Positions 1,504 to 62,536 of a DNA stretch of 64,000 bases are shown here, piece by piece. The DNA comes from Escherichia phage A73: sequence record OP778609; one strand, written 5' to 3'. A model generated the notes under the pieces. It worked only from the letters and a program-made list of their open reading frames with translations, searched no databases and was not told where the DNA came from. Numbering within the stretch: the stretch's first letter is position 1; each line of letters starts with the position of its first letter. Position numbers and translations under genes: made by a program.

Positions 1504-3036
1504 TTGAAGAAGAAGAATAAAGGTCGCAACACACAGGTTCGTAAAGCGACGAGCGAAGAATTAAACGTTGCTCGTTTACGAATGAGTGAGCAAGGTACTT
1601 TTGCTTTAGCTAAGGTTCAGGTGGAAACTGAACGTATGAAAGCTGAAGAAATTAAATGGCCTCAATTGATCGGTACGGTTGAAGCTATGAAACAAGATGC
1701 TACGGTAGCGACTGGTCTTGATATGCTTTACACTTTCGTAGAGAAAGCATTCAAGGACTTCAAAGTAATCCCTGGCAAATCTAAAGAGTCTCAAGACGCA
1801 GCAGAGTTCATTACCTTCTGCCTTCGTAACATGGAAGGTCAAACCCTGCGTCAATTTGCCCGTGACGCTGCCACATTTAACGAATACGGCATCTCTGTAG
1901 TTGAGAAGGTATATACTCAGATCCAGACTGGTGAATATGCAGGACGATTTAAGATTAAAAACCTTGCATTCCGTCCACAGGCTTCTCTGAGTCGTAAAAA
2001 CCCTCTCGTGTACAGCGATGATGGTTCTCGTGTTGTAGGTGTTAAGCAATCCCTTGATTCTTTCAAGAACTACACTGCCAGTCCTCTTGGCGCTTCTATT
2101 AGTGGCCTTATCGGCTCTCGTAAAGGCAATGACGTTGTAATCCCAGCAAACAAGCTGATGATCATGACTACTGGTGGTTCTTCTTCTCAAGCACTCGGCG
2201 TTTCCCCGTTGGTTGCTTGTTACCGACCTTGGCGTGAAAAGGTTCTTATTGAGAACCTCGAAGTTGTTGGTGCTACGAAAGACATGGGCGGCGTTATCGA
2301 ACTGAAGATTCCTTCTGCCATCCTTAACAAAGCTGCCATCGATCCTTCCAGCTACGAAGCAGAAATGGTTCAGGGTTTGATGATGGATGCTGCAAACGCC
2401 CACTCCGGTGAGCAATCTTTCTTTATGCTACCATCTGACGTTAAAGACAACTCACCTTTGTACTCAATGTCTCTGAAAGGCATTGATGGTATGGGTAAAC
2501 AGTACAGTACTCGTGACCTGATCAGTGATCGTAAAAAATCAATCCTTGATCGTCTGGGTGCGGGATTCCTGAACGTAGGTAATGATGCTTCTGGTTCATA
2601 CAACCTGTCGGAATCAAAACAAACTATCCATACTCAATTTGTACAACGTGTTAATGAAATTATCGCTGAAGCACTGAATGAAAACCTGCTCCCTCAGCTT
2701 CTGGCTCTGAACGGTATTCGTCTGGCAGAAAAAGAAATGCCATTCGTTAAATTTGGTCAGATCGTTGATACAGACATGGAAGGTTTCTCTAAAGCGGTTC
2801 AGCGTATGGGTGCTGTCGGCTACTTGCCTAAGACACCGGAAGTTATTAATCGCATTCTTGATGTTCTTGGAATCGATTATCAAGTTGGTGAAGATATTTC
2901 GCAAGAAGAACTTATGCTTCTCCTTGGAGATAATACCAGTCGTTCTGGCGATGGCTTTGCACAGGGGACTTCTGGAAACGGGACTGCAAAGATTAGCGGA
3001 ACAAGAGATAATTCAGTTTCTAATTTAGAAAATTGA
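1504..3036 (+). CDS. Portal protein (putative)
   Basis: 510-aa ORF directly after terminase. TTG start at 1504 behind GAGGGGA; alternative in-frame ATG at 1582. Assigned by size and position, no motif confirmed. Confidence 0.6.
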   Translation: MKKKNKGRNTQVRKATSEELNVARLRMSEQGTFALAKVQVETERMKAEEIKWPQLIGTVEAMKQDATVATGLDMLYTFVEKAFKDFKVIPGKSKESQDAAEFITFCLRNMEGQTLRQFARDAATFNEYGISVVEKVYTQIQTGEYAGRFKIKNLAFRPQASLSRKNPLVYSDDGSRVVGVKQSLDSFKNYTASPLGASISGLIGSRKGNDVVIPANKLMIMTTGGSSSQALGVSPLVACYRPWREKVLIENLEVVGATKDMGGVIELKIPSAILNKAAIDPSSYEAEMVQGLMMDAANAHSGEQSFFMLPSDVKDNSPLYSMSLKGIDGMGKQYSTRDLISDRKKSILDRLGAGFLNVGNDASGSYNLSESKQTIHTQFVQRVNEIIAEALNENLLPQLLALNGIRLAEKEMPFVKFGQIVDTDMEGFSKAVQRMGAVGYLPKTPEVINRILDVLGIDYQVGEDISQEELMLLLGDNTSRSGDGFAQGTSGNGTAKISGTRDNSVSNLEN

Positions 3037-3102
3037 TCTTTGATTTAAATCAGACTCTTGCAAAACGAATCGTTCAGTGTTAAAATAAATATCACGGGAG
3101 CA

Positions 3103-3675
3103 ATGATGGAAAACATTACTATCTCCGACCTTCCTTCACAAACCTATCTGTCCCGAATCCAAAAGGGACGGGCTGTGAAAAAGGCCAATGAGCTACTTAA
3201 ACAGGGCTTCAATAAAGAGGCTTCTATTTCTGGAGCCATTGGCTCCGTTCTTGTCCAAAAAGCTGCACAGAAAGAAGAGATGATTTCTTACGAGATCATT
3301 TACGAACCTGATACGCCGGATGCTCATGGACAATGGATGAGCAAAGAGACACTAGTTAAAGCACAACAAGATTTCAAGAAAGCTCAAGAAATCGGTGCGG
3401 TAACTGAGAACTTGTACCACTTGGTTGATACCGAAGCATTCAAGATCGTAGATCATTGGATTCAGCCAGAAATTGATGTAACTGTCACACAAACAGGAGA
3501 AATCATAAAAGCAGGATCATGGGTAGCAAAGGTTCAATATTCACCTGAAGCATGGGAGTTAAAGAAAGCTGGCATCGTCGGTGGATTATCTCTTCAGTGC
3601 GGTGGTATGTTGAATGAGGAAACAAATGAGCTATCCGATCTTGATTTCAGTATCGAATTGGAAGAGGAAGAATAA
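3103..3675 (+). CDS. Head morphogenesis protein, possible prohead protease
   Basis: ORF track gives 3058 (TTG); in-frame ATG at 3103 follows a GGGAG RBS. Sits between portal and scaffold; function from position only. Confidence 0.35.
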   Translation: MMENITISDLPSQTYLSRIQKGRAVKKANELLKQGFNKEASISGAIGSVLVQKAAQKEEMISYEIIYEPDTPDAHGQWMSKETLVKAQQDFKKAQEIGAVTENLYHLVDTEAFKIVDHWIQPEIDVTVTQTGEIIKAGSWVAKVQYSPEAWELKKAGIVGGLSLQCGGMLNEETNELSDLDFSIELEEEE

Positions 3676-28535: not shown

Positions 28536-28574
28536 CCTTAGATGAGTCGGGCTTCGGCCCGACTATGGAGACTT

Positions 28575-28907
28575 ATGATTGTTGATATAATGGCAGTTCT
28601 GAAAGCACTTTGGGGTCTTTTAACATTCATTTTGCTGGGTGCACTAAAGATCTTTTACACCGACTTTAAAAAATTAGAGTCACGTCAAAGTGAGCTTGAA
28701 AAAGATGTTCTTCGTTTGAAGGAATCTGCGGTTACTAAGGATAGTATCGATGCCATTCTTGACCGTAAGATAAAGCATATCACTGATACGATTCAAGATA
28801 TCAGGACCGATATCACAGATATGCGAAAGGAAGCGAAAGAAGAAAACCACGCTCTACAGAAAGATATTCGAGAGTTACTAAACAAAATTATTGAGAACCG
28901 CAAATGA
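28575..28907 (+). CDS. Membrane-anchored coiled-coil protein (possible spanin/holin-like)
   Basis: ATG at 28575 behind GGAG (ORF track 28542 lies inside a hairpin); N-terminal TM helix then ~80-aa charged helical region. Confidence 0.45.
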   Translation: MIVDIMAVLKALWGLLTFILLGALKIFYTDFKKLESRQSELEKDVLRLKESAVTKDSIDAILDRKIKHITDTIQDIRTDITDMRKEAKEENHALQKDIRELLNKIIENRK

Positions 28908-29362
28908 TTACAGCCATAATATATGGCATTTGTTTCGTAATCCTTGCTACTCGAAAAGAGAGTGGAACAAAGATAATGGCTGGGCTTTGCCTAGCCTATC
29001 TCGTATTGGAGAACCTGATCCTTTGGTTCTTCTCTACGCAACAATATTTCGACATCACTCTTTATTTTAATGTTCTCTGGACATTGGATTCGATACTGCT
29101 TTTCACTATGGGTTGTACAGTGAAGGGATTACGACAAAAACTTATCGTATGCCTAAGTATTCCGTTCATGCTTATTCAAGTGTTTGCAATCCAATATCCA
29201 GAATTGTTCCCCTTATGGGTTTACGAATTCGCTCTTAGAGACGCTCACAAATATTTCATAGAAACCTTTGTGTTCGTTTATTCTTGGAAGGATAATACCG
29301 TACCGGAATGGATAAGAACAGCAGTAGTGATATTTCTAGTGCTCATTGCCCACATGGTATGA
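28904..29362 (+). CDS. Polytopic membrane protein
   Basis: 152 aa, start overlaps upstream stop (ATGA); 4-5 hydrophobic helices. Confidence 0.5.
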   Translation: MITAIIYGICFVILATRKESGTKIMAGLCLAYLVLENLILWFFSTQQYFDITLYFNVLWTLDSILLFTMGCTVKGLRQKLIVCLSIPFMLIQVFAIQYPELFPLWVYEFALRDAHKYFIETFVFVYSWKDNTVPEWIRTAVVIFLVLIAHMV

Positions 29363-29384
29363 ACATTGATAATGAAGGTGATCT

Positions 29385-29645
29385 ATGTTAAAATTTCTCA
29401 AAGACCTAGTGACCTCTGCGGTGGAACCAGATAAAGCTTCTCATACGAAGTTTTGGTCTAACGTAGGTATGGCTGCTATGACTGCCGTCTTTCTCTGGTA
29501 TGGATTCAACAATACATTGCCTGAATGGTACGTATGGCTTTATGCCCCTACGGTAGTGGCCCCACACCTGTTGAGTGACCTCATCAACCTCCGTTGGGGA
29601 TTATCTTTGAAAAAAGATAAAGACCCTTCCGACGAAAACAAGTAA
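29385..29645 (+). CDS. Small membrane protein
   Basis: 86 aa with GAAGGTGA RBS; one or two TM segments and charged C-terminus. Confidence 0.45.
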   Translation: MLKFLKDLVTSAVEPDKASHTKFWSNVGMAAMTAVFLWYGFNNTLPEWYVWLYAPTVVAPHLLSDLINLRWGLSLKKDKDPSDENK

Positions 29646-35908: not shown

Positions 35909-36481
35909 TCAAGGACGTTTCGGTGGACTAACGACACCTTTTTTAGATAAAGGTAATTCGTCTGCATCTTTTCCACGGAGAGATTCTAACCACTCATCTA
36001 AAGATAGAGGTACTTTGCCAACACCCTTGGACCATACAGATAAGCAATACAGGTCGTATGCAGATGGGCCAGCATCACCCTTGTCACCATACGGCCCTTT
36101 TAAACTCGCCAACCAATCCTTTTCATTCAGTGGGATAGTGCCTGGATCTTCTTGTCGAAGAACTCTTAGGTATGTTTCATAAGCAGACTCTCCACGGGGA
36201 CCCATTGGACCAGGTAAACCTTGCGGTCCCTTTGCATAGTCTAAATATGCAGACTTTGAACCATCATTGACCACTGAAACTTTATACAATGACCAAGCCA
36301 ACAGAACTATCCAACAAGCAAACAATGCAAGCGGGTAAGGGATCATTGAAGTAAAGAATGACAGGGCTAAAATTACAACCTTGTTCTTGTGATCACGACG
36401 GAAAGCGATGATCACAGGGGCTAACCAGATAGCAAAGATAACCCACGCAGATAAGATAAACAACCAACTAATGTATTCCAT
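35909..36481 (-). CDS. Membrane protein with collagen-like/fibre-type motifs
   Basis: 190 aa; three N-terminal TM helices, then [39 protein letters not shown] and SLRGKD segments. Confidence 0.5.
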   Translation of the reverse strand: MEYISWLFILSAWVIFAIWLAPVIIAFRRDHKNKVVILALSFFTSMIPYPLALFACWIVLLAWSLYKVSVVNDGSKSAYLDYAKGPQGLPGPMGPRGESAYETYLRVLRQEDPGTIPLNEKDWLASLKGPYGDKGDAGPSAYDLYCLSVWSKGVGKVPLSLDEWLESLRGKDADELPLSKKGVVSPPKRP

Positions 36482-36669
36482 TAAGCCTCCTCAGTATCGT
36501 CTTTAAAGTAATCTAACATCCAACTCTCTACAGGTTTCGCATAGTAACCCGTTCGCCCTTTCTTTTGGAACTCCATAACAATTTCATTTGCAATACCTTT
36601 TGTGATTGCGATCCCGATCAGTGCACCACCAGGCCCCATTACTGCATGTGAACTAAGATCATTACTCAT
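36481..36669 (-). CDS. Hypothetical small protein
   Basis: 62-aa ORF, start overlaps upstream stop. Confidence 0.35.
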   Translation of the reverse strand: MSNDLSSHAVMGPGGALIGIAITKGIANEIVMEFQKKGRTGYYAKPVESWMLDYFKDDTEEA

Positions 36670-36961
36670 TTTTAACCCCCTTCATTTTATCTCTTAAACT
36701 TTGAGCATCCCACGTATAACCTGAGGAGATACCTTTTTCACGTTCACTATCTTTGAACTTGCAAATTACAGATTTTGCTTCACCATCAACAACAACCGCA
36801 TAACTGTTGTAGTAATTGTGTTGCTTCTTGCAAAATTCGTGTAACTCCTTGACCTCTATTGGCATCAGAGAAGGTAGATTTTTGTATCGCTTTGTCTGAT
36901 CATCTTCACCCTCTCCGCAACCAACAAGAAGAAGTATACATAAAATGATTAACCTTTTCAA
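36662..36961 (-). CDS. Putative lipoprotein
   Basis: 99 aa; N-terminus MKRLIILCILLLVGCGEG with lipobox LVGC. Confidence 0.5.
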   Translation of the reverse strand: MKRLIILCILLLVGCGEGEDDQTKRYKNLPSLMPIEVKELHEFCKKQHNYYNSYAVVVDGEAKSVICKFKDSEREKGISSGYTWDAQSLRDKMKGVKNE

Positions 36962-37113
36962 TAGCTACCCCCAAAATATTTTGTAGTCTCTACTGCAAAT
37001 ATTGTCCCAAGTATGAACCATGTCGCACTTAGCACGTTGAAAGGTAAAAACCTCGATCCTGCAAGAGAAACCATAATAAAAAACGTTACAAAAATCTCTG
37101 GAGGAATCATCAT
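36958..37113 (-). CDS. Small hydrophobic peptide (not in ORF track)
   Basis: 51-aa ORF MMIPPEIFVTFFIMVSLAGSRFLPFNVLSATWFILGTIFAVETTKYFGGSY; ATG overlaps stop of upstream gene (ATGA). Confidence 0.35.
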   Translation of the reverse strand: MMIPPEIFVTFFIMVSLAGSRFLPFNVLSATWFILGTIFAVETTKYFGGSY

Positions 37114-37511
37114 TGTTTGATAGTCCCTTTGGCGATCATCTCGTCAAGTTCATCTTCCGCACGACACATGATTTGGTAGATAGTTTCTGGATTGTTTAAG
37201 AATTCTGTGTACTTCTTGATACGACAAACTAAACGTGCACGAACTTTACGCTCACGGGCCACATGATTAAAGTAATGTCCCTTTTGTCTGTAGACCCAAG
37301 CATAATATACAGTTTTTGCTCTCTGGCGATCAGAACCTAAACGTTCAGCTAATTCTGTGTACGGGTCATTGTTGGTTGGACCAAACAAAAATATTTCTGC
37401 AAAACTTTCCTTCATGATACGAGCTTCTTCATCCGTAACTCGCGGACATTCTTCAGAACCGTAACGTGGGGTTTTAGTGGCATTTGGCTTCTTAGGGTAT
37501 ACTTTACGCAT
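37110..37511 (-). CDS. Hypothetical protein, possible HTH regulator
   Basis: 133-aa basic protein; segment YTELAERLGSDRQRAKTVYYAW is helix-turn-helix-like. Confidence 0.4.
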   Translation of the reverse strand: MRKVYPKKPNATKTPRYGSEECPRVTDEEARIMKESFAEIFLFGPTNNDPYTELAERLGSDRQRAKTVYYAWVYRQKGHYFNHVARERKVRARLVCRIKKYTEFLNNPETIYQIMCRAEDELDEMIAKGTIKQ

Positions 37512-37578
37512 TTCATCACTCCTCTAATTAAAACTCTTACTCCCGATGTGAGGAGCCTTTCGGCCCCTCCCTTAAATA

Positions 37579-38187
37579 TCAATCACAACTGCTTGAAGAA
37601 CTGCTACTGCTACTATCCGAAGAATAACTATCGTAAGATGATGAGCTATCATACGAACTTGATCGACTTGGAGAACAGTAAGAACTTGAACTACTTGTAC
37701 GATCTTCACTGGATGACATTACGGCAGCATACGTTGCCACACCACCTAAAGCTGCCACCTGAGGATCAACCTGGCTAGTCCCGTACCCGTTTGGGGAGTC
37801 GCTCATCTTACGTGGTGCTGCCCGACGTGCCTGATCAATATACTGTCGCTTTGCCTTCGGCGGTAATTTCTTACCTTGAGCATAGGACGGTAATTCAACG
37901 CCCTTCAGTTGTTCATCCAAGGACTTAGGCGGTGTAGCCTGAGCTTTTGGGCGTTCAATTGAGATATCTACAACCTTCATTGTTTTATCTTTAAGGTTTA
38001 CCCCTACCAACGCTTCATTTTCCTTTAGTGGTTCTTCTAAAGATCGTGTTTCAACTGGACTGAATTTAACGCTTGCAGTTTCTTGACGTTGTTCAGCTTG
38101 CTTTGCGATATACTTATCGATCGCCGCAGTTTCTACTTCCAGAGGAATAAATAATGATTTTACCCAAGCAACAAACTTCTTGATCAT
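37579..38187 (-). CDS. Hypothetical protein with poly-Ser C-terminal tail
   Basis: 202 aa; last ~50 residues almost exclusively Ser/Tyr/Asp. Confidence 0.45.
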   Translation of the reverse strand: MIKKFVAWVKSLFIPLEVETAAIDKYIAKQAEQRQETASVKFSPVETRSLEEPLKENEALVGVNLKDKTMKVVDISIERPKAQATPPKSLDEQLKGVELPSYAQGKKLPPKAKRQYIDQARRAAPRKMSDSPNGYGTSQVDPQVAALGGVATYAAVMSSSEDRTSSSSSYCSPSRSSSYDSSSSYDSYSSDSSSSSSSSSCD

Positions 38188-38408
38188 ACTCTTTCTCCTT
38201 TTTCATCAATAACGATTAATGGCTCAATAACTAAAAGGCGCTGCTTCATAAGACTTTTTATAGTCTCATCGATATCAGATAGAAGAATATCTTTTTGACT
38301 TTCTATCCAATTACGTGCTGCCTTTTCTGAAACAAATGCAATACCTTCTTGACCAATATCCCATTCACAGAATACTTTATACACCATCATCTTCTCCCTT
38401 GTCAACAT
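38184..38408 (-). CDS. Hypothetical small protein
   Basis: 74-aa ORF, start overlaps upstream gene. Confidence 0.35.
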   Translation of the reverse strand: MLTREKMMVYKVFCEWDIGQEGIAFVSEKAARNWIESQKDILLSDIDETIKSLMKQRLLVIEPLIVIDEKGERV

Positions 38409-38694
38409 TTTTCGGATTAAGTTTCTTTTCTGCGGCCTTCAAAATAATATCCAGCTTTTCAATTTCCTTATGTAAAGGCTCAGATAATAACTTCTCACCA
38501 AAAAGCCAGAATTTCTTCATGCCTTTCTTAACGCACTTTCCCATAAAGCCCGCGAGGTCTTCTAGTCGCCAAGCAATAAAACTAAATATTGCAGCTAAAA
38601 GGTGAATCAAGGCCAGTAGTAAACGATGCGGGTTTAGTACAGCAAGGCACAGGATCATAAAGATTATTTTAGTAAAACCCCAAATAATTTTCAT
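38377..38694 (-). CDS. Small membrane protein
   Basis: 105 aa; two N-terminal hydrophobic helices, charged C-terminus. Confidence 0.4.
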   Translation of the reverse strand: MKIIWGFTKIIFMILCLAVLNPHRLLLALIHLLAAIFSFIAWRLEDLAGFMGKCVKKGMKKFWLFGEKLLSEPLHKEIEKLDIILKAAEKKLNPKNVDKGEDDGV

Positions 38695-48280: not shown

Positions 48281-48997
48281 TTATTTGTTGTATTGATAAA
48301 TTGCTTCAGCTAAACCCCGTGGAGTTAGTGACCGGATCATCTTAGTTCTTGCTGACTTACCTCCCAACTTATTCTGCTGATCTGACCAACCAGGTGCAAC
48401 AGGAACCGGAGAGGTTTTTGGAATTATAAACCCATTTCCTGTCCAAAGTCCAGTCTTTTTCGGATAAGCATCCCGTGGTTTAATGTATTGAGGAAAATAA
48501 GGGTTAACATCATTTACCGGAAGGTAACCACCATATTCCCAAGGGTTAAAATATACAGTAGGTTTTCGCCATTGTCCAGCTAAAACACTTACTGGGTTTT
48601 CAATCATATACGGACAATCGAAAACAAATTCAGCAAGCCAGGCTGCAATCTTCGCAGTTCTTACCGCCTTGATCTGGAAGAAAGGATCTTTTGCTTTCTT
48701 CGATGCAAAGTGACGAGAACCACTAACAGCCATATCGGTACATGGAGGGTAGGCAAGGATCAGGTCCGGCGCAGGCAATCCTAAGTTCTCTACATTCTCC
48801 ATCCATTCAATATCGATAAAGGCGTTAACGTAAGTGATGTTGGGATGAATTTCCTTTACGCCTTCATAATCCCCGTGATCAGCATCATCATAGTTGAAGC
48901 AGTAGCATTTGTGCCCTGCCTTCGCCCAGGGAAGAACATCAATCCCTGAGCCAGAAAAGAGACTCCAGATAATCTTTTTATTCATCGTAGCATCCAT
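48281..48997 (-). CDS. Compact C5-cytosine methyltransferase-like protein
   Basis: 238 aa; motif I-like SLFSGSG (12-18), motif IV-like YPPC (83-86), motif VI-like ENP (133-135), RSLTPRGLAEAI near C-terminus; very short region where a target-recognition domain would sit. Confidence 0.5.
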   Translation of the reverse strand: MDATMNKKIIWSLFSGSGIDVLPWAKAGHKCYCFNYDDADHGDYEGVKEIHPNITYVNAFIDIEWMENVENLGLPAPDLILAYPPCTDMAVSGSRHFASKKAKDPFFQIKAVRTAKIAAWLAEFVFDCPYMIENPVSVLAGQWRKPTVYFNPWEYGGYLPVNDVNPYFPQYIKPRDAYPKKTGLWTGNGFIIPKTSPVPVAPGWSDQQNKLGGKSARTKMIRSLTPRGLAEAIYQYNK

Positions 48998-49290
48998 ATA
49001 GTGGTTAATTTACAAATACACCAGAAAATCCCGATCAGTGTAGCAAGAGCAATAACACAAGTCAATGCCATAGGTAAGAATATTGTCATAATCACTGCAA
49101 ATACTGAAATACCTACGCTTGCAATAAGATCCGGTACGAAATAGTGAAATGGTTCTCTGGCCTTTTTAACGTTGTCCCATGTTATCACTACGGAGGTAAT
49201 AGCGAGCCAGAATAAAAAGTACAAAGTGCAAGAAAATAAAGTCATATTTGACTTAATCATATCAAACCACATGTTGTAGAATTCAATCAT
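48982..49290 (-). CDS. Small 3-TM membrane protein
   Basis: 102 aa; begins MIE like the upstream neighbour; overlaps the MTase-like gene start. Confidence 0.45.
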   Translation of the reverse strand: MIEFYNMWFDMIKSNMTLFSCTLYFLFWLAITSVVITWDNVKKAREPFHYFVPDLIASVGISVFAVIMTIFLPMALTCVIALATLIGIFWCICKLTTIWMLR

Positions 49291-49610
49291 TCAGTTTTCC
49301 TCGGTACAGATGCAATAACAGCCTTTTCGACGAGACATACAATAAATCTCCCAATCCCTGCCAAAAGGAGAGCAAAGACTGTAAAAGGCAACCCATAAAT
49401 AAGAACTAGGGCCATCAATCCAAAACCAATGGCAAACAGGGTTTCTGTGCCTAGCCACATCTTAGAGTAATTGATATAATTATACCGCAATTTTAAAAAC
49501 AGTCCAGCAATAGAGCCTACAGAAAATATACCAATCAACCAAGGTGCGGTTACAAATGAACGACTGAACCCTTCCCAAAAAACAAAAACATTAATGATTG
49601 CTTCGATCAT
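49287..49610 (-). CDS. Small 3-TM membrane protein
   Basis: 107 aa; start-stop overlaps on both sides. Confidence 0.45.
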   Translation of the reverse strand: MIEAIINVFVFWEGFSRSFVTAPWLIGIFSVGSIAGLFLKLRYNYINYSKMWLGTETLFAIGFGLMALVLIYGLPFTVFALLLAGIGRFIVCLVEKAVIASVPRKTE

Positions 49611-54824: not shown

Positions 54825-56183
54825 TTACTGGTTATTGAAAATACTCGGGAACTTCTCGTGATAGAAGTCTACAACATCCTGATCAACGATGATATCTTTT
54901 ACTCGCAGACGCTTCATCAGGCGAAGACCTTCTACGGATGTGGCACGAGATAGCATGACGTAGGCTTGCCCAGGTGTAAAAGTACCAAAACCAAGATCAA
55001 TATTTACTTTACCCAAGGTAAGACCCTGCGCTTTATGACCCGTGATTGCATAACCTAACTTAAATGGGTACTGGATATACTCACCGATAGATTTATCAAC
55101 AAGAACAGTTTTTTCAACCATCTTCTTGATCGTCTTTTTGGTTCCGTCCGGCATATCCACCTCTTCCTCTTCAAGCATCATCTTTTTCTCAGGTACTTGA
55201 GCAACGTTGTTCCATGTTGCAGGGCCTATTGGGACCATCTTGCCATCGATATCTACAACAACAAAGGTTTTTGCGATACGACGAACAATGCCGACTGTAC
55301 CGTTGACATAATCAGGCACTTTCTTCTTCTGATCATTGTCGTTAACAACAATCATTACTTTAAGACCTTCCTTGAGAAAGAGTTTTTCATTAACTGGACG
55401 TTCAACAAACTCACCAGTAATACGGGCATTAAATTCATGCTGTTCAGCATTAATCTTTGCGTACTCTTTGTTGTTAATCTCTTCTGCCAGCTTGTTTGTG
55501 GTAGTTAAAGTTACTGCCCCGTCAAGTGGACGACCAAAGCAACGCTGGTTAAAGAAGTTAACGGCATCAGGGATGTTTTTCCCGATACGAATATTGTTCA
55601 GGTGTTCTGCAAACACTGGATCACTTTGACGATGAACTTTAGGAAGATAAGCATAGGTCAGATTCAAAGATTCCCAAGTTTCACACCCAAAAGGAATTTC
55701 TTTCCCGTGCAGTTCACGGAACAAAGGAACTTCTTCTTTCTTAAGTACAGGCTTGATCTGGAAGCCGTCACCAAACATGATGATCTGGAGTCCACCAAAA
55801 GGCTTATCGGATTTACGATGGTGGCGAAGTTTCATATCGATTTCTTTCAGTTTGTCACTTCTAGTCATACCGATCTCATCGAACACGATACCATCGAGTG
55901 CATCAGATGCCATAAGCATAGCTGCCTTTTTAGATTTTGCTTTATAATCCTCGGAAGTTGTGACACCAAAGGTTAAACCAAACGCTTTATGGGTAGTAAC
56001 ACCACGGATGTTTAATGATGCCACGCCTGTTGGACCAACAAACAGAAAACTATCAGCAAAGAAGTCACGCAGTGCTGCGATCATCATACTTTTACCACTA
56101 CCACCAGGTCCGGTGATAAAAACGTTTTCCCCATTCATGATTGCTTGCATTGCCGCTTCGTTACCGATCACTGTCTTAGTCAT
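54825..56183 (-). CDS. SF1 DNA helicase (Dda/RecD/PIF1-like)
   Basis: 452 aa; Walker A ITGPGGSGKS, Walker B VFDEIGM, motif V-like AYAITGHKAQGLT, motif VI-like YVMLSRATS. Confidence 0.8.
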   Translation of the reverse strand: MTKTVIGNEAAMQAIMNGENVFITGPGGSGKSMMIAALRDFFADSFLFVGPTGVASLNIRGVTTHKAFGLTFGVTTSEDYKAKSKKAAMLMASDALDGIVFDEIGMTRSDKLKEIDMKLRHHRKSDKPFGGLQIIMFGDGFQIKPVLKKEEVPLFRELHGKEIPFGCETWESLNLTYAYLPKVHRQSDPVFAEHLNNIRIGKNIPDAVNFFNQRCFGRPLDGAVTLTTTNKLAEEINNKEYAKINAEQHEFNARITGEFVERPVNEKLFLKEGLKVMIVVNDNDQKKKVPDYVNGTVGIVRRIAKTFVVVDIDGKMVPIGPATWNNVAQVPEKKMMLEEEEVDMPDGTKKTIKKMVEKTVLVDKSIGEYIQYPFKLGYAITGHKAQGLTLGKVNIDLGFGTFTPGQAYVMLSRATSVEGLRLMKRLRVKDIIVDQDVVDFYHEKFPSIFNNQ

Positions 56184-56373
56184 TATTTAGTTCCTCATAT
56201 TCGTATGGGTAGATTTGATACTCTTTGTTGTCTTTTAGTGCGACGGCTGTAACACTTTCAACGTAAAAATCATCATCATAGTGTATTTCCTCAATTACGA
56301 GAATATCACCTTTCTTTGGATGATCATCACGATCACTGAAATCATTTAATAGCTTTATTTTTACGTTTTTCAT
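56176..56373 (-). CDS. Hypothetical small protein
   Basis: 65-aa ORF overlapping helicase start. Confidence 0.3.
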   Translation of the reverse strand: MKNVKIKLLNDFSDRDDHPKKGDILVIEEIHYDDDFYVESVTAVALKDNKEYQIYPYEYEELNND

Positions 56374-56554
56374 ACAACATCTCCGCTGCTACAAGTGATA
56401 AGATCATTGCCATATACATCACAATAGAGGTCACACTGATTTGAATGAATAGTTCATCAGTAACATGATTGAAGTAAACATTCTTTACATATCGAACCCC
56501 TATAAGCCAAAATGCCATCACCACAGCAAATGTTAGTATCATACGTTTTATCAT
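56342..56554 (-). CDS. Small 2-TM membrane protein (possible holin)
   Basis: 70 aa; two hydrophobic helices, basic C-terminus KRKNKAIK; immediately downstream of the hydrolase gene with overlapping stop-start. Confidence 0.35.
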   Translation of the reverse strand: MIKRMILTFAVVMAFWLIGVRYVKNVYFNHVTDELFIQISVTSIVMYMAMILSLVAAEMLYEKRKNKAIK

Positions 56555-57066
56555 TTCTTCTTCTCCTCTTTGTCTTTATAAAAGATGTGATTTTCTATGG
56601 TTACTGTTCTTTTTAGAAGTTTACGCCAAACGGGTTTAACCTTCTTCGTATGATAATACAGAGATCCATATGTCGGGTCAAACCTTTTGTACAAAATCTC
56701 GTTATTTTTTAGCTTATGTACGAATTTTGATATACTAAGAGCACCCTCCCAAGAATCTTTATCTGTTATATTATAGGAAGATTTGGTTAGTGTCCACGAG
56801 AACTGAGAGGCTTGATACACAACACCCTTCATAGTGGTTGGGAACTTATCATGCTTCATACGATTCATGGTTACAAATGCAACAGCCATCTGACCATTAA
56901 CAGTCTCACCTCTTGCTTCCATATAGACATTACAGGCTAAGGCATTTACAGAATTATCCTTTTTCGTACATTTATGAATAACCTTCTGTGCTCTCTCTTT
57001 GGCATAAGTGACACCTGGTGCCAGAGACAGAGTACAAATCAAACCACATAAAACTAATTTTTTCAT
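56551..57066 (-). CDS. Cell-wall hydrolase (SleB/Hydrolase_2-like) with signal peptide
   Basis: 171 aa; N-terminal MKKLVLCGLICTLSLAPGVTYA looks like a Sec signal; core ALACNVYMEARGE...VAFVTMNRMKHDKFP...GVVYQASQFSW. Confidence 0.7.
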   Translation of the reverse strand: MKKLVLCGLICTLSLAPGVTYAKERAQKVIHKCTKKDNSVNALACNVYMEARGETVNGQMAVAFVTMNRMKHDKFPTTMKGVVYQASQFSWTLTKSSYNITDKDSWEGALSISKFVHKLKNNEILYKRFDPTYGSLYYHTKKVKPVWRKLLKRTVTIENHIFYKDKEEKKK

Positions 57067-57112
57067 TTTTCCTCCAATTGAGGACCCAGCTTATCACTGG
57101 GTCACCCTCTTG

Positions 57113-57499
57113 TCAACTACCTTCGATATGCTTCTGAATTTGATCAGCAATGCCTTTCCATAAACCATTAAGGAAAGGGTTACTTGTGATGATTTCGCCC
57201 AACCAAGGGCCATACAGGCGGTATACGTAGTCATCTGTGATCGCATAGATACTTCCATCACGTACAGCAAGACCACGTACAAGGGAGGTTGTTACACGAC
57301 GACCTGCAAACCCCGTCTTTTGGTATTCCAGTTCAGAATGTTCAATATAACCTACCAGATTTACCAGATTTTGAGTTCCATCAATTGCAAACCCACATTT
57401 CTTTTCAAGGTCTTCTGAAATCTTACTGACCCCCTCTAATGCGAAGTTACCTCCAAATTTTAGGCCGTACTTAGCTGCAAGTTTATCGTGCGCTGTCAT
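57113..57499 (-). CDS. Hypothetical protein
   Basis: 128-aa ORF. Confidence 0.4.
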   Translation of the reverse strand: MTAHDKLAAKYGLKFGGNFALEGVSKISEDLEKKCGFAIDGTQNLVNLVGYIEHSELEYQKTGFAGRRVTTSLVRGLAVRDGSIYAITDDYVYRLYGPWLGEIITSNPFLNGLWKGIADQIQKHIEGS

Positions 57500-61756: not shown

Positions 61757-62014
61757 TCAACTAAAAATTAAAGAAACAACGTGGTAAATTACTTGGGGAA
61801 AGATAACTACGAAGTACAGATCAACAAATCCAGAGATAAAGTGATAAGCCTTCAGTTTTGTACGTTTACCTTTGTAAAAATCAGAGATGATTTTGAAATA
61901 TTTATAAAGATTCCTTAAAAGTGCAAAACCGATCAACCCCAACCCACTAAGAACCACAACAAAAAGTGAAAACTGGACGTCCGCACTAAAAACACCAATA
62001 ATAAGATCTAACAT
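61757..62014 (-). CDS. Small membrane protein
   Basis: 85 aa with two hydrophobic helices. Confidence 0.4.
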   Translation of the reverse strand: MLDLIIGVFSADVQFSLFVVVLSGLGLIGFALLRNLYKYFKIISDFYKGKRTKLKAYHFISGFVDLYFVVIFPQVIYHVVSLIFS

Positions 62015-62289
62015 TAAATTTCCTCCAATTCAGACTCTACGATGTAAAAACCTTGTAATATTTCATAAACCCACGTATTAAAATGGTCAGAATATACTAT
62101 ACCCTTTACACTATAAGTTTTATTTTCAAACTTAACTGTTGGGTTATTGACCCTCACCACAGTATCACTTGCAAACTTGGGCATACCGTGCTTTGAAATT
62201 GCTTCACGATCAACTTTATAAACATTCCTCCCAAAGAACTTTTCCAGTGGGCAAAGATTATTCTCAAAATCAGTACCCATAGTCAACAT
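62014..62289 (-). CDS. Hypothetical small protein
   Basis: 91-aa ORF. Confidence 0.35.
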   Translation of the reverse strand: MLTMGTDFENNLCPLEKFFGRNVYKVDREAISKHGMPKFASDTVVRVNNPTVKFENKTYSVKGIVYSDHFNTWVYEILQGFYIVESELEEI

Positions 62290-62536
62290 CCCCTGTAATT
62301 ACTGAAGTGCTTTTCTTTGTCTTACCATTTGAAGTCTTGATATGAGTATCTGCATGAGGACAATACACCACATTCAGACTCATATCTCCTGGGTTAGCTT
62401 TGAGACGATAAATCTTACAACCTGCCTCTTTCATTTCTTGCGGTAAAATGTAATTAGTAGTCTTATCGACAACGCCCTTTTGATCACAACCGGAAATGAA
62501 ACATACCATAAAAATCGCAGCAATAATCTTTTTCAT
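62270..62536 (-). CDS. Putative lipoprotein
   Basis: 88 aa; N-terminus MKKIIAAIFMVCFISGCDQ with lipobox ISGC. Confidence 0.45.
   Translation of the reverse strand: MKKIIAAIFMVCFISGCDQKGVVDKTTNYILPQEMKEAGCKIYRLKANPGDMSLNVVYCPHADTHIKTSNGKTKKSTSVITGDVDYGY

Follow-up and report, generated by a model that had tools for sequence, protein, structure and literature searches.

The minus-strand gene at 56551..57066 of Escherichia phage A73 encodes an SleB/CwlJ-type peptidoglycan hydrolase of 171 aa, and our preferred reading, to which we give a probability of roughly one half, is that this enzyme is a Sec-exported accessory endolysin working with an M15C peptidase, with the 70-aa two-transmembrane (two-TM) protein encoded directly behind it as a candidate membrane partner. 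The window analyzed is the whole 64,000-nucleotide stretch taken from sequence record OP778609. The phage is a member of Septuagintavirus, a genus in the subfamily Vequintavirinae, and its protein A73_73 is 100% identical to the 171-aa hydrolase. The pair is already known: in 2020, it was described for the sister genus Certrevirus, with CB7_83 as an SleB-like protein and CB7_82 as a candidate class II holin (PMC7344957), and a Septuagintavirus paper of 2024 lists the SleB-like gene. A73 is one more member of this published putative annotation. The features of the locus are the following:

56176..56373, minus strand: ORF of 65 aa that runs from within the 3' end of the partner gene into the 5' end of the helicase gene, in the same transcription unit
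56342..56554, minus strand: 70-aa two-TM hairpin membrane protein, candidate holin or regulator (ORF, hydropathy, dN/dS)
56551..57066, minus strand: SleB/CwlJ-type (Pfam Hydrolase_2) peptidoglycan hydrolase precursor, 171 aa (ORF, profile, fold, dN/dS)
56917..56919, minus strand: codon of Glu50 (Y-M-E-A-R-G-E), the predicted catalytic glutamate, invariant in the homolog alignment
57001..57066, minus strand: predicted cleavable Sec signal peptide, residues 1-22, composed of MKK, LVLCGLICTLSLAPGV, and TYA, with KE following the cut (homolog pattern)
57080..57107, minus strand: conserved GC-rich RNA/DNA hairpin within the 46-nt gap that precedes the hydrolase gene
57088..57116, minus strand: sigma-70-like promoter candidate overlapping the hairpin (direct reading, putative function)

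The 171-aa protein belongs to the Pfam Hydrolase_2 family, as judged from its full-domain score, its E-x-R-G-E glutamate, and its SleB fold. The Pfam profile (PF07486) aligned from position 1 to 100 of 100 with hydrolase residues 53-163 (E=2.2e-23, 83.2 bits for a cut-off of 27), PHROG 938 'endolysin' matched with E=4e-27, and a profile search against solved structures retrieved the SleB catalytic domains 4F55 and 4FET with E about 1e-17. When the AlphaFold2 model (pLDDT 86.4) was compared with solved structures by Foldseek, only SleB was recovered, with a probability of 1.0 and target-normalized TM values of 0.72-0.76, and no other fold appeared at E<1. These results bear out an earlier note on this DNA, which had recognized a Hydrolase_2-type core by its EARGE, NR, and QFSW motifs; all three are found in the ORF, within YMEARGE, TMNRMK, and SQFSWT. 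The aligned counterpart of Glu50 in 4F55 and 4FET is the first E of YGESRGE, which we take to be the catalytic glutamate of SleB. The hydrolase falls outside the spore cortex-lytic SleB proper: its score of 64.7 bits against the NCBIfam SleB equivalog TIGR02869 falls below the cut-off of 236.5 and covers model positions 72-201 only, and a Pfam scan detected no PG_binding domain, the N-terminal peptidoglycan-binding domain expected of that group.

A comparison of six Septuagintavirus genomes gave dN/dS values of about 0.03 (hydrolase) and 0.07-0.14 (partner) at dS of up to 0.7-1.0, so that both are real genes under strong purifying selection and not chance ORFs. A recombination breakpoint within the hydrolase gene was also newly found here.

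The N-terminus of the hydrolase has the layout of an n-h-c signal peptide with a predicted signal peptidase I site: MKK, a hydrophobic core of 16 residues, and VTYA followed by KE. Most close homologs share the small residues at -3/-1 and the subsequent K-E/D (AxA, then K-E/D), together with a helix-breaking Pro/Gly at -5/-6, around a core that is itself divergent. This pattern agrees with the Sec-type signal that the earlier note had attributed to the enzyme. Residues 1-24 are modeled by AlphaFold2 with pLDDT <50, and an N-terminal hydrophobic segment is found in 71 of the 79 diverse IMG/VR homologs. The mature part, whose pI is about 9.8, contains exactly two Cys in nearly all homologs examined. 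With such a signal, the protein would not be a canonical holin-dependent endolysin, that is, a soluble, cytoplasmic, and signal-less enzyme. Some homologs carry I/V-A-A-C or L-V-A-C near residue 11. A lipoprotein N-terminus was considered and rejected: the Cys is missing in several orthologs, position -1 is L/I/V in Septuagintavirus, the 7-8 residues before the Cys are too short, and AxA followed by KE is present in most close homologs.

The stop codon of the hydrolase gene and the start codon of the partner gene overlap by 4 bases (ATGA); the earlier note had placed both ORFs, and this overlap, correctly to the base. Its two-helix membrane protein is likewise recognizable, with two hydropathy segments at about residues 4-20 and 39-55, and the basic residues on either side (KR before TM1, KRKNKAIK after TM2) predict an N-in/C-in topology. 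The partner would thus match a class II holin or pinholin in being small, in having two TM segments in a predicted N-in/C-in arrangement, and in adjoining, and being coupled to, a putative endolysin gene. Homology to a described holin family, as far as profiles can tell, is what it lacks. Scans of the partner and its positional orthologs against Pfam, NCBIfam, and PHROGs found no holin family, with CB7_82 falling into PHROG 10205 'membrane protein' and GAP31_002 into PHROG 24442 (unknown function), and a homology search through 5.8 billion proteins returned only 2 clusters, both confined to its own genus.

Within Septuagintavirus, the MIKRM start of the partner and its EKRKNKAIK tail are invariant. 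The basic C-tail and the MIKRM dual-start motif are absent from the Certrevirus orthologs, CB7_82 ending in HTVGNE and KaOmega_94 in ITHD. Positional orthologs occur in Certrevirus, Kashira, Seunavirus, Mydovirus, and Henunavirus, and the position directly 3' of the hydrolase gene is kept in at least six Vequintavirinae lineages, with sequences that have almost wholly diverged. No partner was found at the rV5-like, T5-like, Phapecoctavirus, and Pakpunavirus loci, nor at any of the 79 IMG/VR loci (79/79); since these loci bear the hydrolase, a partner is not a general requirement of the enzyme. In phage CR9, the partner gene is frameshifted, an observation that is new here.

The holin identity suggested by the earlier note fits the two TM segments and the predicted topology, and is weakened by the lack of a holin family, by the start and tail not being conserved in Certrevirus, and by the many loci without the gene. 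For a membrane-permeabilizing or regulating partner, no better candidate is available than the 70-aa protein. The window encodes at least seven further small membrane proteins or lipoproteins that are holin candidates just as unannotated as this one. A search for lysis annotations among these seven gave none, and no recognized holin is present anywhere within the window. The late membrane trio at 28542-29645 matches only PHROGs that are unknown or labeled 'membrane protein', its first gene giving weak spanin-like matches (E about 2e-3).

The hairpin upstream of the hydrolase gene ends 4 nt before the Shine-Dalgarno sequence GGAGG (57071-57075) and folds with -27.8 kcal/mol (z=-3.56), a stability reached by none of 200 shuffled sequences. 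It is kept in six genomes, the stem changes in CB7 are compensatory, and canonical terminators occupy the same position in other genera. This conserved hairpin or terminator, immediately before the hydrolase gene, is a detail newly found here, and its presence in many lineages suggests a toxic product whose expression is attenuated or under separate control. The promoter candidate consists of TTGACA (57111-57116), a 17-nt spacer, and TGaTAAGCT (-10 at 57088-57093); the -10 hexamer agrees with the consensus at 3 of 6 positions only and was missed by a consensus scan. The same promoter-like architecture is seen in CB7, CR9, and KaOmega, and a sigma-70-like promoter candidate lies directly upstream of the hydrolase in A73, CB7, and Phapecoctavirus. 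On the other side of the pair, the 65-aa ORF (dN/dS about 0.1) links the partner gene to a Dda/PIF1-like helicase gene (54825-56183), which places the pair inside an operon of replication genes. In Vequintavirinae, the hydrolase gene lies in replication or early blocks; the other lineages examined have it in early or non-structural regions. Genes rIIA/rIIB are variably present nearby, and the order of the pair is the most constant feature of the neighborhood. The literature searched holds no usable transcript timing for Vequintavirinae.

Close relatives of A73 also encode a cytoplasmic M15C endolysin, about 50 kb from the hydrolase. W70_198 is such an enzyme, a soluble M15C peptidase of the Lys type known from phage T5 (PHROG 465, E=4e-66); it has no signal peptide, and its gene lies between phoH and ribonucleotide reductase genes with no membrane-protein neighbor. 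The earlier note had found it odd that a lysis-like pair should sit among early genes. This did not stand, since the M15C gene of the genus and the T5 hol/lys genes are also outside a classic lysis cassette, among nucleotide-metabolism or non-structural genes. A canonical endolysin likewise accompanies the exported hydrolase in other lineages (PMC3352856, PMC12031403, PMC10793346, PMC11180984), and within Vequintavirinae its type varies between M15, GH19, GH24-like, and modular enzymes (PMC12031403). The exported hydrolase is conserved across all Vequintavirinae genera. The endolysin-holin pair envisaged by the earlier note is thus sustained in its exported SleB-type domain and in the coupling to a two-TM protein, and called into question by the second endolysin, M15C, of the relatives.

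In CRISPRi-ART knock-downs of T5, lys alone and the Hydrolase_2 homolog T5.083 alone were scored 'Not Fit' and the holin 'Fit'; the screen has many false negatives, so that 'Not Fit' calls are weak evidence, and the single knock-downs of lys and T5.083 are compatible with redundancy. Roseobacter phage CRP-113, considered as a case in which Hydrolase_2 would be the only lysin, was set aside: a separate lysozyme is present, and its Hydrolase_2 has no signal peptide.

If the hydrolase is an accessory endolysin, as we favor, it would be an active glycan-strand-cleaving enzyme of the SleB/CwlJ family, most likely a lytic transglycosylase. Sec would export it and signal peptidase I would cut it, by prediction after Ala22, bringing it to the periplasm without a holin; there, the conserved C33 and C45 would probably be disulfide-bonded. 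Its gene would start a unit insulated by the hairpin from the upstream genes and translationally coupled to the 70-aa protein, which may act as a membrane-permeabilizing or regulating partner, possibly as a holin. Most likely stationed in the periplasm before lysis, the enzyme would become lethal only when membrane energization and wall synthesis collapse at holin triggering, and its action combined with that of the cytoplasmic M15C would cut both glycan strands and peptide cross-links. The CB7 ortholog was reported to have a signal peptide and to exert toxicity upon expression in E. coli, as 'data not shown' (PMC7344957). The literature searched contains neither a biochemical nor a genetic test of any phage Hydrolase_2 whose host is Gram-negative. 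A soluble periplasmic muralytic enzyme produced from an early/middle operon should risk premature lysis, which counts against this model.

It is possible, if unlikely, that the exported hydrolase is an early or middle periplasmic factor for peptidoglycan remodeling and not a lysis enzyme, and that the two-TM protein modulates or inhibits it from the inner membrane, much as YpeB keeps SleB inactive. Remodeling could serve cell enlargement, the loosening of the wall so that lysis can follow later when growth conditions are poor, or interference with superinfecting phages or with host envelope functions. The location of the gene in replication/early or non-structural blocks, the putative promoter directly upstream, and the absence of a fitness defect upon knock-down of T5.083 all point in this direction, as does the canonical endolysin that is always alongside in the lineages examined (PMC3352856, PMC10793346, PMC11180984) and whose type is variable where the hydrolase is common to all genera (PMC12031403). 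Moreover, YpeB-type inhibition of SleB is documented in spores (PMC13556211). However, no phage Hydrolase_2 is known to have a non-lytic role, the reported toxicity of the CB7 ortholog is what is expected of a cell-lysing enzyme, and the partner is missing from most lineages, so that a dedicated inhibitor is not generally needed. We are quite doubtful about the wider proposal that Sec-exported SleB-type enzymes form a widespread, unrecognized class of early/middle periplasmic wall-remodeling enzymes, with the two-TM partner as a dedicated inner-membrane regulator. Such a class would take in Vequintavirinae, Stephanstirmvirinae, T5-like phages, and Pakpunavirus; an export signal is found in about 90% of the environmental phage homologs. 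In the lineages examined, a canonical endolysin accompanies the exported hydrolase, and in most of these lineages a terminator hairpin precedes the hydrolase gene.

The remaining alternatives concern the N-terminus, the adjacency of the two genes, and the site of action. An uncleaved N-terminus serving as a signal-anchor/SAR domain that tethers an inactive enzyme to the inner membrane seems improbable to us; in that case, the 70-aa protein would free it, either as a pinholin of the phage 21 kind or as a releasin like Mu gp25. The N-terminal hydrophobic segment does contain Cys, Gly, Thr, Ala, Ser, and Pro, Pakpunavirus homologs have an N-terminal TM segment that looks uncleavable, and an exported endolysin next to a small membrane protein is the architecture of SAR/pinholin pairs and of Mu gp22/gp25 (PMC9239132). 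Against this, AxA, K-E/D, and the Pro/Gly at -5/-6 recur while the core drifts, which is the signature of a signal peptidase I substrate; the weak-residue (G/A/S/T) fraction of the hydrophobic core, on a crude scoring, is only 0.10 in the A73 hydrolase; and the partner's TM1, strongly hydrophobic, does not resemble a SAR domain. In other genera, the weak-residue fraction is 0.3-0.6. We also have little confidence in the idea that the adjacency is historical, with the 70-aa protein serving as a holin for the distant M15C, or in another membrane function, unlinked to the hydrolase. That the M15C gene has no membrane-protein neighbor, that the window holds no recognized holin, and that rV5-like and many other phages have the hydrolase without the partner would all suit it, but the stop/start overlap and the strict position have been maintained through at least six lineages despite near-complete sequence divergence, and nothing else in the neighborhood, where rIIA/rIIB may be present or absent, is equally constant. 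Peptidoglycan hydrolases are often virion components, and a virion-associated lysin for cell-wall penetration at infection was therefore considered. This reading is very improbable given the Sec signal peptide and the location in the replication block instead of the structural block, and it was rejected because the hydrolase is missing from the set of 28 proteins that MS detected in virions of W70.

Two cell-wall-degrading enzymes are carried by many of the large virulent phages that infect Gram-negative bacteria, including therapy candidates among the rV5-like, PVP-SE1-like, T5-like, and phAPEC8-like phages. If the exported enzyme and its partner constitute a second, holin-independent lysis route, this would explain lysis without a classic cassette and provide a new enzyme class for the endolysin toolbox. 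If the exported enzyme acts earlier, it would represent a new kind of host-takeover function.

Among known systems, that of Pectobacterium phage CB7 is closely similar: CB7_83 is an orthologous hydrolase (about 56% identity) with a signal peptide, followed by an overlapping two-TM ORF, a small ORF, and the helicase gene, and preceded by the same hairpin and promoter-like element; rIIA/rIIB are lacking from both phages. The two partners differ in that their sequences are barely alignable, CB7_82 having neither the basic C-tail nor the MIKRM start. A second parallel is offered by Lys44 of oenophage fOg44, a Sec-exported endolysin with a cleaved signal peptide, and by SAR/pinholin pairs such as R/S21 of phage 21 and Lyz of P1. 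The A73 pair shares with them an enzyme export that would be independent of a holin and a small membrane protein that would collapse the membrane potential. It differs in its catalytic family, in the order of the genes (enzyme, then membrane protein), in the absence of a lysis cassette, and in the additional cytoplasmic endolysin of A73-type phages. The T5-like 'putative cell wall hydrolase' T5.083 (PHROG 938) is also a Hydrolase_2 protein with a signal peptide and two Cys in its mature part; it is encoded in an early/non-structural region and coexists with the M15 Lys, which belongs to PHROG 465 as does W70_198. Unlike the A73 gene, T5.083 has no two-TM partner and no upstream hairpin, and the T-type holin of T5 adjoins lys.

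With Bacillus SleB (4F55, 4FET), the phage enzyme has in common the fold of the catalytic domain and the E-x-R-G-E motif, and SleB is also co-expressed with a membrane-anchored partner, YpeB (PMC13556211). The phage hydrolase lacks the N-terminal PG_binding_1 domain, its partner is unrelated to YpeB, and its substrate cannot be the muramic-delta-lactam cortex, as the host is E. coli. Finally, phage Mu also combines an exported endolysin, gp22, with a small membrane protein, the 'releasin' gp25 (PMC9239132); gp22 stays membrane-anchored, and there is no homology to the A73 pair. Since the signal peptidase I site is conserved in the A73 hydrolase, a release step of the Mu type should be unneeded.

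The feature comprises two overlapping genes on the minus strand, which continue without a gap into a third ORF and then into a gene for a Dda/PIF1-like helicase.

56551-57066 (-), 171-aa hydrolase ORF, from the ORF call and the sequence
56342-56554 (-), 70-aa partner ORF, its ATG overlapping the TGA of the hydrolase gene (ATGA)
56176-56373 (-), 65-aa acidic ORF, overlapping the partner gene and the helicase gene
57080-57107, hairpin upstream of the hydrolase gene, in a 46-nt gap (fold -27.8 kcal/mol, z=-3.56)

The hydrolase has the same sequence (100% identity) as A73_73 of Escherichia phage A73, and the window shares 90-100% identity with W70, A5-4, A7_1, UPEC06, and LTH01, phages of the genus Septuagintavirus (Vequintavirinae). 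The 171-aa protein matches the full Pfam Hydrolase_2 model (PF07486; E=2.2e-23, 83 bits against a cut-off of 27 bits) as well as PHROG 938 ('endolysin'), and has a dN/dS of ~0.03 over six genomes. A profile search of solved structures, using the hydrolase and 17 homologues as query, matched only the Bacillus SleB catalytic domains 4F55 and 4FET (E ~1e-17), whose Y-G-E-S-R-G-E pairs with Y-M-E50-A-R-G-E of the phage protein. Its AlphaFold2 model (pLDDT 86.4) likewise retrieved those structures alone with Foldseek (probability 1.0). The Hydrolase_2-type core described in the earlier note is thus borne out; the feature is real and, as far as sequence goes, was described correctly. It is also already known, as an annotation-level hypothesis with a putative function. 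In the Septuagintavirus paper, 'cell wall hydrolase, SleB' and the M15C 'endolysin' are two distinct entries (PMC11370258). The 2020 account of the sister genus presents the counterpart CB7_83 of Pectobacterium phage CB7 as a SleB-like protein that bears a signal peptide, is conserved throughout the Vequintavirinae genera and is toxic when expressed in E. coli ('data not shown'; PMC7344957). Both the observation and its endolysin-holin interpretation therefore repeat published annotation. Within the region 56000-57150, positions 56000-56868 (the partner gene plus two-thirds of the hydrolase gene from its 3' end) are identical to W70, those from ~57014 upward (most signal-peptide codons and the upstream genes) are near-identical to A5-4, and the patchy stretch between them (56869-57013) departs from either phage, which places a recombination breakpoint inside the hydrolase gene.

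The N-terminus of the hydrolase consists of MKK, LVLCGLICTLSLAPGV, and TYA|KE. When 13 close homologues and orthologues from seven Vequintavirinae genera were compared, the hydrophobic core was found to vary freely, while most of them share small residues at -3/-1 and then K-E/D, a Pro/Gly at -5/-6 being frequent as well. This is the pattern of a signal peptidase I substrate; it supports the Sec-type signal peptide predicted earlier and speaks against both a SAR domain and lipoprotein processing. The predicted mature protein has a pI of ~9.8 and, in nearly all homologues, exactly two cysteines (C33 and C45), which would allow a disulfide to form in the periplasm. Of 79 diverse IMG/VR loci sampled that encode relatives, 71 show an N-terminal hydrophobic segment; among phage members of this enzyme family, export is therefore the norm.

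The 70-aa partner has two hydrophobic helices, as the earlier note had stated along with the stop-start overlap; KR ahead of the first and KRKNKAIK behind the second imply an N-in/C-in topology. With a dN/dS of 0.07-0.14 at a dS of up to 0.76 in six genomes, it is a real gene. Searches of Pfam, NCBIfam, and PHROGs returned no holin family for it, and among 5.8 billion proteins its relatives form only two clusters, both from its own genus. A small two-TM ORF, usually with the stop/start overlap, occupies the identical site in Certrevirus (CB7_82, KaOmega_94), Serratia phage Kashira, Seunavirus (GAP31_002), Mydovirus, and Henunavirus, and these sequences are barely alignable with one another. 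The holin-like traits (MIKRM dual start, basic tail) are invariant within the genus and absent in Certrevirus. The partner is missing from rV5-like phages, where the hydrolase gene leads straight into rIIA, and likewise from T5-like phages, Phapecoctavirus, Pakpunavirus, and all of the 79 IMG/VR loci.

Several observations concern the neighbourhood. Cronobacter phage CR9, listed in the literature as the Certrevirus exception without a two-TM partner, has the gene (L012, ~2980-3180) but split by a frameshift, with MKNLFIWAITLLAVWMFPARWGANYFFPEV... in one frame and ...QVPWIMAWGAVMMFLSLVIMAFISHD* in the next, reflecting either a sequencing error or a pseudogene. Many environmental phage loci (L035, L046, L047, L063, L071, L075, L081, and L093-L095 of IMG/VR) encode a soluble protein of ~73-80 aa directly downstream of the exported Hydrolase_2 gene (for example ...YIDAV..YCE...LE.E.VA.LI...LK.KI..EA..LN...), perhaps another conserved neighbour that accompanies the enzyme in these lineages. 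The 65-aa ORF is annotated in UPEC06 and not in the W70, A5-4, A7_1, and LTH01 records; it is probably a real gene, given its dN/dS of ~0.1, and its match to PHROG 14198 carries the label 'exonuclease', doubtful for so small a protein. In most Vequintavirinae genera (Seunavirus, Mydovirus, and Henunavirus loci), rIIA-rIIB and the Dda-like helicase gene follow immediately downstream of the pair; in Septuagintavirus, Certrevirus, and Kashira, rIIA/rIIB have been lost and the order hydrolase, partner, helicase is kept.

In the region 57071-57116, the upstream hairpin lies 4 nt before the Shine-Dalgarno sequence of the hydrolase gene, within a promoter-like TTGACA-N17-TGaTAAGCT. It is kept in all six Septuagintavirus genomes, and CB7, CR9, and KaOmega have it too, with compensatory changes in the stem, the surrounding element shared by A73 and CB7 being TTGACA-N17-TGaTAAnCT. 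GC-rich terminators or terminator-like hairpins occupy this position in Kashira, Seunavirus, Mydovirus, Henunavirus, and rV5-like phages. In Phapecoctavirus a terminator is combined with a strong extended -10 promoter, Pakpunavirus shows a terminator-like hairpin, and T5-like phages lack any hairpin there. A GC-rich hairpin or intrinsic terminator thus directly precedes the hydrolase RBS in seven Vequintavirinae lineages, Phapecoctavirus, and Pakpunavirus, which suggests that the gene is insulated from upstream transcription and expressed separately or weakly, as might be expected for a toxic product. These regulatory clues are new in this analysis.

The second muralytic enzyme, the M15C peptidase W70_198 (127 aa), falls in PHROG 465 (E=4e-66), to which T5 Lys also belongs, and has no signal peptide. 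Its gene lies outside the window, at ~108 kb in W70 between phoH and ribonucleotide-reductase genes, with no membrane-protein neighbour. Since neither muralytic gene belongs to a late operon, the placement of the pair among early genes stands as described, but is no anomaly. The hydrolase was not found among 28 W70 virion proteins. Other membrane proteins are encoded in the window:

28542-29645 (+), 'late membrane trio', between tail-fibre genes
36662-36961 (-), predicted lipoprotein, MKRLIILCILLLVGC
62270-62536 (-), predicted lipoprotein, MKKIIAAIFMVCFISGC

The trio, all in PHROGs of unknown function, comprises a protein of 121 aa (N-terminal TM segment, apparent coiled coil, and weak Rz-like spanin matches at E ~2e-3), a four-TM protein of 152 aa, and a membrane protein of 86 aa. 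The two lipoproteins and further small membrane proteins lie in early-strand blocks (35909-38694, 48982-49610, and 61757-62536, (-)); none of them has a known function, and one with three TM segments (35909-36481, (-)) gives a weak match to a superinfection-immunity PHROG.

We favour, with a probability of about 0.5, an accessory Sec-delivered endolysin: the hydrolase would pre-load the periplasm via Sec and cooperate with holin-released M15C peptidase, and the 70-aa protein would be a membrane-depolarising or regulating partner. A non-lytic role in remodelling the wall from the periplasm, in the early or middle phase, is the main rival, at roughly half that weight; it draws on the conservation of the enzyme across lineages while canonical endolysins vary, on the early-block location with sigma-70-type promoters, and on the absence of the partner from most lineages. 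SAR/pinholin or releasin variants are less likely, as is a purely historical adjacency of the two genes.

Comparable pairs of enzymes are known. Canonical endolysins accompany an exported Hydrolase_2 in PVP-SE1 (gp146, characterised; PMC3352856), in rV5-like phages (LysECP26), and in LNA4 (GH19-type) (PMC12031403), and Phapecoctavirus adds a GH24 enzyme to its own (PMC10793346). In T5-like Salmonella phages the M15C enzyme adjoins a holin, and the authors state that the enzyme in use is not known (PMC11180984). CRISPRi-ART in T5 scored holin C1 'Fit', and lys (T5.040) and the Hydrolase_2 homologue T5.083 each 'Not Fit' (PMC11879866), which is compatible with redundancy, though many essential genes escape this screen and the evidence is therefore weak. 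With respect to spore SleB itself, the hydrolase falls far under the NCBIfam equivalog cut-off (64.7 versus 236.5), and the N-terminal peptidoglycan-binding domain of SleB was not found in it. The phage enzyme is thus a member of the catalytic-domain family rather than a SleB orthologue.
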